Assembly (NCBI RefSeq): GCF_022846255.1
Contig: NZ_AP025682.1
Length of the DNA: 64,000 bases
Reading direction: 5' to 3' (one strand)
Origin: Escherichia coli
GTDB lineage: Bacteria > Pseudomonadota > Gammaproteobacteria > Enterobacterales > Enterobacteriaceae
The position numbers and the translations under genes were made by a program. Under the pieces are notes generated by a model. It saw nothing but the letters and a program-made list of their open reading frames with translations. It was not told the DNA's origin and ran no database searches. This document shows, one piece after another, positions 35,854-37,390 of the stretch. How positions within the stretch are numbered: position 1 is the first letter of the stretch; the number at the start of each line of letters is the position of its first letter.

Positions 35854-35888
35854 GCCCCGCCAGCTGTAATAGCGGGGCTTCGTTTTTC
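35854..35888 (+). terminator. Intrinsic terminator after ykgJ
   Basis: GCCCCGC...GCGGGGC stem followed by TTCGTTTTTC. Confidence 0.6.
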
Positions 35889-36038
35889 AGGGACAACAAA
35901 ACCTGAAACTTCTTCCATTTTCCAGCAACAATGCCTCTTCTTCTGTAGCGTTCTCCGGATCTACATCATCCTGAAGTAGCGCGATATGATCACTGACTGT
36001 CCGCATCAGAATATGAAAAGCAACGTTTTTAACCTATA

Positions 36039-36065
36039 AAAATGGCGCTATATTTGCGCCATTTT
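36039..36065 (-). terminator. Intrinsic (bidirectional) terminator after yagU
   Basis: AAAATGGCGC-TATATTT-GCGCCATTTT perfect 10-bp stem flanked by A/T runs. Confidence 0.6.
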
Positions 36066-36079
36066 TATCATTCAAAGCA

Positions 36080-36694
36080 TTATCTATTTGAGCCTAAAGG
36101 GATCTCAGGATCTGGCTCATGGGTAATTCTGTTTCGTAAATCTCTGCGAATAATTTCAATAGACCAGAACCAGACTAAATGTCCAAAAATTTCAGAGACA
36201 TTCTCATACCACGGAAGCTCAAAGAGAGGTGGCGTAAGTCCCATGAGAGGGAATGAAATCATATGAACAAAAAGTTGCGCTAAAGCACCTGCCAGTAAGC
36301 CCTGCCAAAGTTTAATTTTCGGAAATACTTCGGCGACCACACAGTAACCAACGGCAAAAACTATCGAAAAGATTATGTGCGTTACACCAACCCAGTTAAA
36401 GACATGCCCGGCGAAGGTATAAACAGCCGAATTTGGATCTGTCAGTCCCAACCAATCCCGAAGAAAAATGTACGGAGGATTGAGAAAGTTACGGGAGCAA
36501 TCAATTTGGCCTGCAGCCCTGATTAATGATTCCGGACCACACGCTGCATTAAACATATCAACCGGACTACGTGGTGGCAATGGAACTTCTGCCCCCCACT
36601 TAACAAATGCGGAAACAACGCCAGCAATCAGCCCAATGAATGCAGCAAGACCATAACGTCTGCGGTTTGGTGGAGTTTGTTCAAATATATTCAT
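36080..36694 (-). CDS. yagU: Inner-membrane protein YagU (DUF1440)
   Basis: 204 aa, multi-[36 protein letters not shown]... Confidence 0.85.
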
Positions 36695-36901
36695 ATCTAC
36701 CCTGCTTGTACCATTATGTTATACACCTCTTTAGGAGTATTCATAAAACAAGGCAAATGTAAAGAACTGTATTGTTTTGTATAACCACATGGTTACCTAA
36801 TCGCCAATTAATATAAGCTCCATTATTTCTCCATATTTTTATGTTAGAAGTGACAAGGAGAAATGTAATGTTTCTCTCAGAGAATATAAATCATTCCTTT
36901 T

Positions 36902-36926
36902 GCCCACCTTAATGGTGGGCTTTTTT
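36902..36926 (+). terminator. Intrinsic terminator in the yagU-thrW spacer
   Basis: GCCCACC-TTAAT-GGTGGGC then TTTTTT; overlaps the stop of a 14-codon mini-ORF. Confidence 0.5.
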
Positions 36927-37151
36927 ATGCAAAACCTGAACGTCCTGTGGTATTCCTCTGGCATAATGATTTTCGCGATTAACCAACAACCAGACCAGCA
37001 AAGACGCCACCACAAGCACAGCAACATCCATCAGGCTTGCCACACCCCATGCGTGCGGCTCAAAGCCGCCATGGCATATTAATCCGCTTGCCATTTTCGA
37101 ACAGCTGATTGGTTTAGTCCGGTGTTTCCCTGCTTGCACTTAAAAATGAGC

Positions 37152-37226
37152 GGATGGGAAACTCTCGAAATGGTTCGTCGATATGCTCACCTCGCACCTA
37201 ATCACCTTACCGAACACGCACGGTAA
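37152..37226 (+). pseudogene. Remnant: last about 25 codons of a phage-type tyrosine integrase
   Basis: ...[24 protein letters not shown] (RYAHL catalytic-Tyr tail); upstream frame is not integrase-like; lies 89 bp from the tRNA-Thr 3' end. Confidence 0.45.
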
Positions 37227-37314
37227 ATAGATTCGATCCTGAACCCATCGGTCCCAAATCTGTCCCAATAAAAAATAAGGAAGGTATTAGTGATGTGTAA
37301 CTTATTGATTTAAA

Positions 37315-37390
37315 TGGTGCCGATAAGAGGAGTCGAACCTCCGACCTTCGCATTACGAATGCGCTGCTCTACCAACTGAGCTATATCGGC
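37315..37390 (-). tRNA. thrW: tRNA-Thr (anticodon CGU)
   Basis: 76-nt cloverleaf read on minus strand: acceptor GCCGATA/TATCGGC, D-arm GCTC-AGTTGGTA-GAGC, anticodon loop TTCGTAA, T-arm GGAGG-TTCGACT-CCTCT, encoded CCA. Confidence 0.95.

Follow-up and report, generated by a model that had tools for sequence, protein, structure and literature searches.

What separates yagU from thrW in this Escherichia coli chromosome, and why are the two genes so close together? The window analyzed here, a 64,000-nucleotide stretch of contig NZ_AP025682.1, carries ecpE, ykgJ, yagU (minus strand), a gap, thrW (minus strand), proA, and proB, and the identical gene order was found in RefSeq loci that are 99.7% identical to the window. 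An initial reading made from the sequence only had placed yagU about 620 bp from tRNA-Thr(CGU) and had stated that CP4-6 and several other genes lie between these anchors in K-12. Both points were borne out. The gap measures 620 bp, and in K-12, where yagU and thrW are approximately 40 kb apart, the intervening DNA consists of paoABCD, a LysR pseudogene, and the cryptic prophage CP4-6. The same reading held that an element was once integrated at thrW and then almost wholly deleted, and the remnants of two phage genes described below (an integrase and a phrog_1443 gene) support this. We conclude that the interval, which we refer to as the scar, is very probably what is left, inert and decayed, of a temperate phage whose SfI/SfII/SfV-type tyrosine integrase inserted it at the thrW 3' end. 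We regard it as unexceptional: thrW is a well-known tRNA hotspot, and the prophage remnant already carries an annotation. Its left flank, yagU, encodes an inner-membrane protein of the DUF1440 family. The features of the locus are collected in Table 1.

Table 1. Features of the scar and its flanks, in window coordinates
Feature	Position	Strand	Basis or remark
yagU	36080-36694	-	ORF of 204 aa; annotated as yagU in near-identical RefSeq loci
Conserved yagU upstream region	36695-36855	.	Homology with the initial 161 bp of the spacer between yagU and paoA in K-12
AAGGAG, Shine-Dalgarno-like hexamer across deletion junction 2 (36855/36856)	36855-36860	+	Alignment with K-12
Orphan segment, 120 bp, holding the 14-codon ORF and the terminator	36856-36975	.	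Found in this scar only
14-codon ORF, MFLSENINHSFCPP	36868-36912 (TAA at 36910-36912)	+	Absent from the RefSeq annotation
Intrinsic terminator (stem GCCCACC/GGTGGGC, loop TTAAT, then TTTTTTA)	36902-36927	+	Predicted
Mechanically called ORF, 76 aa	36909-37139	-	Chimera of phrog_1443 remnant and flanking sequence
3' remnant (~codons 52-96 of 97) of a lambdoid late-region membrane-protein gene	36976-37103	-	phrog_1443, ev207 gp24-like
Integrase pseudogene remnant, codons 307-372 of a 372-aa Sf-type thrW integrase	37104-37300	+	tblastn, blastn, alignment
14-bp spacer from int stop to tRNA 3' end (attL arm)	37301-37314	.	Alignment with intact prophages
thrW, tRNA-Thr(CGU), intact	37315-37390	-	ARAGORN; Rfam tRNA, 71 bits

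Two phage gene remnants and the deletion junctions

The scar was compared with a full-length thrW integrase. A tblastn search revealed 38 identities in 44 residues (86% protein identity; E = 6e-24), and blastn gave 86 to 88% identity over 231 nt, from int nucleotide 919 past the stop codon and into the tRNA. The remnant keeps part of the C-terminal catalytic domain with the catalytic-tyrosine motif RYAHL (RRYAHL). There is no complete, uninterrupted frame of ~372 codons; the 66 codons that are left are interrupted by one nonsense change (CAA to TAA at 37224-37226) and two frameshifting indels (2 nt lost near 37142 and 1 nt lost at 37269/70). Judged by these lesions, the remnant is a pseudogene fragment, and RefSeq already annotates it as such (37143-37300, a pseudo-integrase noted as "frameshifted; internal stop"). 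The sequence-only reading had correctly described the 3' remnant of an integrase pointing at the tRNA, but the stretch it took for the last ~25 codons (37152-37226) is the middle of the 66-codon remnant, and the stop codon at its end is the nonsense change of CAA rather than the native stop.

The full-length reference integrase comes from strain Res13-Lact-PEB20-37-A, where an intact lambdoid prophage carries its gene at a distance of 14 bp from thrW. It matches phrog_1 and further integrase PHROGs and is 98 to 99% identical to the integrases of Shigella phages SfI, SfII, SfIV, and SfV. Phages of the SfI/SfII/SfIV/SfV type integrate into thrW beside proA via a 46-bp core (PMC3636060). In the window, the int 3' end lies beside the tRNA 3' end with the same spacing as in the intact prophage, which is the arrangement of an attL site. 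Immediately upstream of int in the intact E. coli thrW prophage is a helix-turn-helix gene, in the place where Sf phages have xis, and exo/bet/gam are found further on. A P4-like or CP4-6-type island was also considered as the source of the integrase fragment, in place of a lambdoid/Sf-type phage, given that K-12 has CP4-6 at thrW and that CP4-like islands with cbtA/yeeU ends adjoin the scar in some strains. This source was rejected and is almost certainly wrong: K-12 IntF yields no alignment to the remnant, whereas the Sf-type integrase is 86% identical to it in protein and 86 to 88% in DNA, and the genes accompanying the Sf-type int in the intact thrW prophage (helix-turn-helix, exo/bet/gam) also argue against an island.

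Further inspection of the scar revealed a second phage fragment, missed in the earlier reading, on the minus strand directly adjoining the integrase remnant. It is 83 to 84% nucleotide identical to a gene present in 46 phage records and matches phrog_1443 (E = 5.5e-8) and phrog_34165 (E = 2.2e-14). In lambdoid phages this 97-aa gene sits after the side-tail-fibre genes (for example, ev207 gp24 and its counterpart in PhiR49_2). The translated remnant aligns to phage residues ~52 to 96, transmembrane helix included, and carries a 5-nt deletion. The phrog_1443 homology and the int homology meet at a single base, 37103, indicating a clean deletion junction at which everything between them was removed. 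These two fragments are all that was found of phage genes between yagU and thrW, with no phage structural, regulatory, or replication genes. The late-gene fragment strengthens the reading of the interval as a prophage scar.

We also noted that an IMG/VR provirus located beside the scar (locus L012, 7851-7975) has its own phrog_1443-type gene, which shares 82% identity with the remnant in the scar. A fossil and a live phrog_1443 homologue thus lie within a few kilobases of each other in some genomes.

The 76-aa ORF on the minus strand runs through the late-gene remnant, and RefSeq calls part of it (36909-37094) a 61-aa "hypothetical protein." All 16 of its matches were scar variants or read-through chimeras, some of them antisense to int, and none of the 16 was a full-length protein sharing the C-terminal tail of the ORF. 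Differences between scar variants within this ORF are mostly nonsynonymous (9 versus 4 and 13 versus 5), and in Nissle 1917 the ORF has an internal stop. On this substitution pattern, the ORF appears to evolve neutrally and is not a conserved or maintained gene.

At the yagU end, K-12-type genomes match the 620-bp query at positions 1 to 161 only. Alignment with the K-12 yagU-paoA spacer shows that the homology stops at 36855/36856, between GTGACA and AGGAG. The sequence-only reading had suggested looking for a second, directly repeated copy of the 3' end of thrW as a check on past integration; the result was negative, in that no second copy with 3 or fewer mismatches in 18 nt, and hence no core repeat that could represent attR, was found anywhere in the window. 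Short repeats within the scar were at chance level, and none was relevant. Because the window retains no attR repeat, there is nothing to link the second junction to the end of the prophage. A thrW 3'-end repeat is present beside the scar in strains that later gained another island.

From the homologies and junctions, we infer the following order of events. In the orientation of the window, the prophage would have read attR, cargo genes (plus strand), a terminator, the last late/tail genes (minus strand), the remaining phage genes, xis, int (plus strand), and attL/thrW. A first deletion would have joined the middle of the phrog_1443 gene to int codon 307 at 37103, so that practically all of the prophage was lost. 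In a second event, a deletion or rearrangement, a point 120 bp beyond the late gene would have been joined to the yagU upstream region; attR would have gone at this step, as would the paoABCD side when K-12-type genomes are taken as the reference. Later decay would have consisted of point mutations and small indels. The plus-strand terminator would once have closed an attP-proximal cargo operon convergent on the late operon, and the 14-codon ORF would be either the truncated tail of a cargo gene or a chance ORF, with its AAGGAG assembled at the deletion junction.

The orphan segment, its terminator, and the 14-codon ORF

Between the two junctions lies the 120-bp orphan segment. By blastn, it is present in 1,299 of 5,426 complete E. 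coli genomes, each of which has one copy, located inside the scar. No donor was found in the phage collection by blastn or tblastn. Exact-pattern scans of IMG/VR likewise gave no donor, every match being a proviral contig that runs into the scar, and among GTDB species representatives there were two chance matches (Scalindua and Priestia), both confined to the 25-nt hairpin. With no donor found, it is position and strand that point to a phage origin.

The hairpin belongs to the predicted terminator. It spans 36902-36920, with a 7-bp stem containing six G-C pairs and a calculated energy of -14 kcal/mol, and is followed by T6. An equally strict terminator arose in 1 of 3,000 shuffles of the region, and this is the sole one so strict in the window; the predicted terminator is therefore well beyond chance. 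It would act on the plus strand only, because no T-run follows on the minus strand. The sequence-only reading had described a strong intrinsic terminator with the stop codon of the 14-codon ORF inside it, and this is what was observed. The stop codon falls within the hairpin because of the palindromic TTAA in the loop, which also stops the minus-strand ORF. One genome has an uncompensated C>A change in the stem, which also converts Pro to Thr in the 14-codon ORF.

As a general rule of layout, in prophage orientation, such phages carry attP-proximal cargo genes that share the strand of int and are convergent with the last late gene (PMC3636060). In related phages the plus-strand cargo ends in a terminator that converges on this gene. 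SfV carries gtrABV (gtrA-gtrB-gtrV) as cargo, with an annotated rho-independent terminator, and at the matching place ev207 has sitABCD and PhiR49_2 a dinI-like gene. Since the strand and position of the predicted terminator match the layout of these relatives, it is most likely the inherited end of a phage attP-proximal cargo operon. We accordingly propose that the whole orphan segment may be what remains of an attP-proximal cargo unit of the lost prophage, namely its 3' end with the terminator.

Alternatively, the segment could be ancestral chromosomal DNA from beyond attR. The pao genes would then never have been present in this lineage, the paoABCD side of K-12 would be derived, and the terminator would belong to a lost host gene rather than to a phage. 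The failure to find a phage donor fits this alternative, as do the genome counts (paoA in 3,452 to 3,613 genomes and the scar in 1,299), which, as total counts only, are compatible with scar and pao being alternative haplotypes. However, the segment is missing from all complete E. coli genomes without the scar, and the GTDB representatives gave chance hairpin matches only. There is also no thrW core repeat between the segment and the late-gene remnant, and in position and strand the segment agrees with the terminators that close the cargo of related phages. We consider an ancestral origin unlikely and retain the cargo-unit origin as our proposal.

The remaining question is whether the 14-codon ORF and its surroundings form a gene. 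The ORF has an ATG at 36868 preceded by AAGGAG at a 7-nt spacing, so that both a start codon and a ribosome-binding site are present. When the 620 bp were dinucleotide-shuffled, 3.3% of the shuffles contained an ATG-initiated ORF of 14 or more codons with a 6-mer Shine-Dalgarno sequence, which corresponds to ~3 expected per 64 kb; in a scan of the whole window, the ORF is thus not beyond chance. The sole sigma-70-like match of the promoter scan in the scar region is on the minus strand (36763-36736) and faces yagU. No plus-strand match was obtained in the window or in K-12, and a paoA promoter kept in the shared 161 bp was on this account rejected as a driver of the ORF. Homologues of the ORF were found neither in phages (tblastn) nor outside the scar in complete E. 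coli genomes (blastn). Against the sRNA families of Rfam 15, the best scores within 36821-36937 were 15 to 26 bits against gathering thresholds of 41 to 99, and these sub-threshold matches were driven by the terminator. The RNA of 36850-36930 is predicted to fold better than shuffled sequences (z = -2.85), with the Shine-Dalgarno sequence paired to UCCUU just before the terminator hairpin.

Just 3' of AAGGAG, at 36863-36870, the overlapping ATGTAATG forms a start-stop pair (ATG TAA), and the ATG of the 14-codon ORF follows immediately.

Comparison of scar variants revealed that 36735-36942 is identical in variants whose flanks differ by 5 to 7%, and that this block reaches well beyond the ORF. 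The sequence of the element itself is identical in six of the seven scar loci compared. Such invariance could mean constraint; recombination blocks explain it equally well. Nearly all copies of the ORF have the same sequence and thus offer no substitutions from which selection could be read; the one variant seen is nonsynonymous. A seemingly divergent variant (P0015/L015) is an indel-ridden assembly of a Nissle-like strain and was left out of the conservation analysis.

One could read the Shine-Dalgarno sequence, ORF, and terminator as a working small gene that arose from prophage debris, either an Hfq-type sRNA of ~75 nt (5' stem-loop, terminator hairpin, and U-tail) or the mRNA of a 14-aa micropeptide. 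The canonical AAGGAG at 7-nt spacing, the strength of the terminator against shuffles, the predicted pairing of the Shine-Dalgarno sequence, and the identity of six of seven loci speak in favor of such a gene. We nonetheless judge this reading quite improbable. The Shine-Dalgarno sequence is split by the deletion junction, an ORF of this kind turns up by chance at the frequency given above, the plus strand has no sigma-70-like match, all Rfam matches fall far under their gathering scores, and no homologue exists beyond the scar among the sequences searched. Moreover, one genome carries the uncompensated stem mutation with its Pro-to-Thr change, and identity between strains is uninformative at the divergence of E. 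coli, the flanking non-ORF block being equally invariant. The stronger claim, that 36855-36927 is an expressed orphan gene (sRNA or micropeptide) created at the deletion junction and kept in about one-quarter of E. coli, is very improbable. If true, it would mean that an orphan gene is retained in ST131, Nissle 1917, and other B2 lineages, in parallel with the origin of EcsR2 (see below); transcription of the small terminator-bearing element would make it the second new RNA born of phage debris at this locus. Rather, the ORF is probably spurious, or else it is the C-terminal end of a cargo gene that was truncated. The sequence-only reading had grouped the 14-codon ORF, AAGGAG, and the terminator as a module. 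All three are present; the grouping is probably incorrect, because the Shine-Dalgarno sequence straddles a deletion junction, the plus strand lacks a promoter match, and the terminator fits an inherited phage feature.

Distribution of the scar and later use of thrW

The scar, with the same junctions, is present in ~1,299 of 5,426 complete E. coli genomes, i.e., about one-quarter. The full 620 bp is found in 1,259 genomes, including ST131, Nissle 1917, and ATCC 25922. In 79 of the 5,426, as in the window, the scar lies directly against thrW-proA. The other scar genomes have a later element between the scar and thrW. In Nissle 1917 this is the vat island, which is without a tRNA repeat; elsewhere, CP4-like or retron-bearing islands leave 16 to 46 nt of the thrW 3' end duplicated immediately next to the scar. 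The 45/46-nt version of this repeat is the published 46-bp Sf core (core sequence from PMC3636060). The location of these islands between the scar and thrW, some with a thrW repeat, indicates that the scar is old, that it predates the islands, and that the site stayed active. The scar is probably not needed for thrW, which is intact and is still used as an integration site.

The boundaries of individual elements were also inspected. In Nissle 1917 (locus L002, 3607-3700; also L015), the scar stops at ...TTGATTTAAA; unrelated sequence, IS1 fragments, and vat come next, so that the boundary of the vat island on the yagU side shows no att-type thrW repeat. In K-12 (locus L019, 1766-3166 and 35193-35991), intF marks the end of CP4-6 closer to paoD, and thrW is bordered by the end with the ykfI/yafW toxin-antitoxin genes. 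A CP4-like island in strain 23CRST013 (L004) is turned the other way, with its cbtA end next to the scar.

Two sets of sequence variants accompany this history. The first is a second flavor of the scar (loci L004, L009, L012, and L016), which has both deletion junctions in common with the window and a different integrase C terminus (...YAHLSVRHFTAHASKIKGTRGE...) from 37193 on. Its sequence indicates a probable later recombination of the resident remnant with another thrW-targeting element. The second concerns the tRNA gene itself. The counterpart of the 46-bp Sf att core is 37315-37360, and the window allele differs from it at two compensatory T-stem positions, being GGAGG/CCTCT where K-12, L016, and the published Sf core have GTAGG/CCTAT. 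The existence of two thrW alleles, with both changes inside the core, suggests that different integrated elements may have supplied the 3' half of the tRNA gene.

The importance of these observations is small beyond annotation hygiene. The scar explains the pseudo-integrase and the 45- to 76-aa "hypothetical protein" that RefSeq records beside yagU in more than 1,000 genomes; the latter is a chimera built on a phage gene fragment and should not count as a gene. The fixed deletion junctions, 36855/56 and 37103, mark the carrier lineages and show that vat and other thrW islands came later. Genomes such as that of the window, in which the scar lies directly against thrW, approximate the ancestral target site of the thrW islands.

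Comparison with known systems

The closest known relatives of the lost element are the serotype-converting Shigella flexneri phages SfI, SfII, SfIV, and SfV together with lambdoid E. coli prophages that have this integrase as well (e.g., in NZ_CP062853). They share with the scar the integrase family (the 3' 200 nt are 86 to 88% identical), the target (thrW beside proA), the 14-bp spacing from int stop to tRNA, the 46-bp core region, and a layout in which plus-strand cargo and a terminator converge on the last late gene. Unlike these phages, the scar has 66 of 372 int codons left, and these are disrupted; it has no xis, gtr, structural genes, or attR, and the thrW core allele of the window has the two compensatory differences from the published core. 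CP4-6 of K-12 shares with the scar the tRNA hotspot, the flanks proA and yagU, and a defective integrated state. However, CP4-6 is P4-like, extends over 34 kb, encodes an unrelated integrase (IntF), and retains many genes, whereas the window holds less than 0.5 kb of phage-derived sequence, from another kind of phage. The vat island and other pathogenicity islands occupy the same site between proA and yagU. In Nissle 1917 and many B2 strains an identical scar forms the yagU-proximal edge of the island, whereas the window has no island.

Phage debris is also present on the other side of yagU. In the ykgJ-yagU spacer, 35874-36074 (minus strand) is a full-length match to Rfam IS009 (RF02111; 197 bits) that coincides with EcsR2, and the EcsR2 primer matches 35962-35986 exactly. 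At this place the RefSeq annotation of Nissle has a 39-aa "tail fiber assembly protein" fragment. With EcsR2 on one side and the scar on the other, yagU is flanked on both sides by phage debris. EcsR2 is an sRNA reported to derive from a degraded phage tail-fibre gene, a documented instance of phage debris becoming an sRNA, and thus resembles the scar in being phage debris next to yagU. Its 5' and 3' ends have been measured, it has an Rfam model, and its authors detected it in each of the 66 RefSeq E. coli genomes they inspected. The 14-codon ORF and terminator, in contrast, have no promoter match and belong to no family, and they are known from sequence alone.
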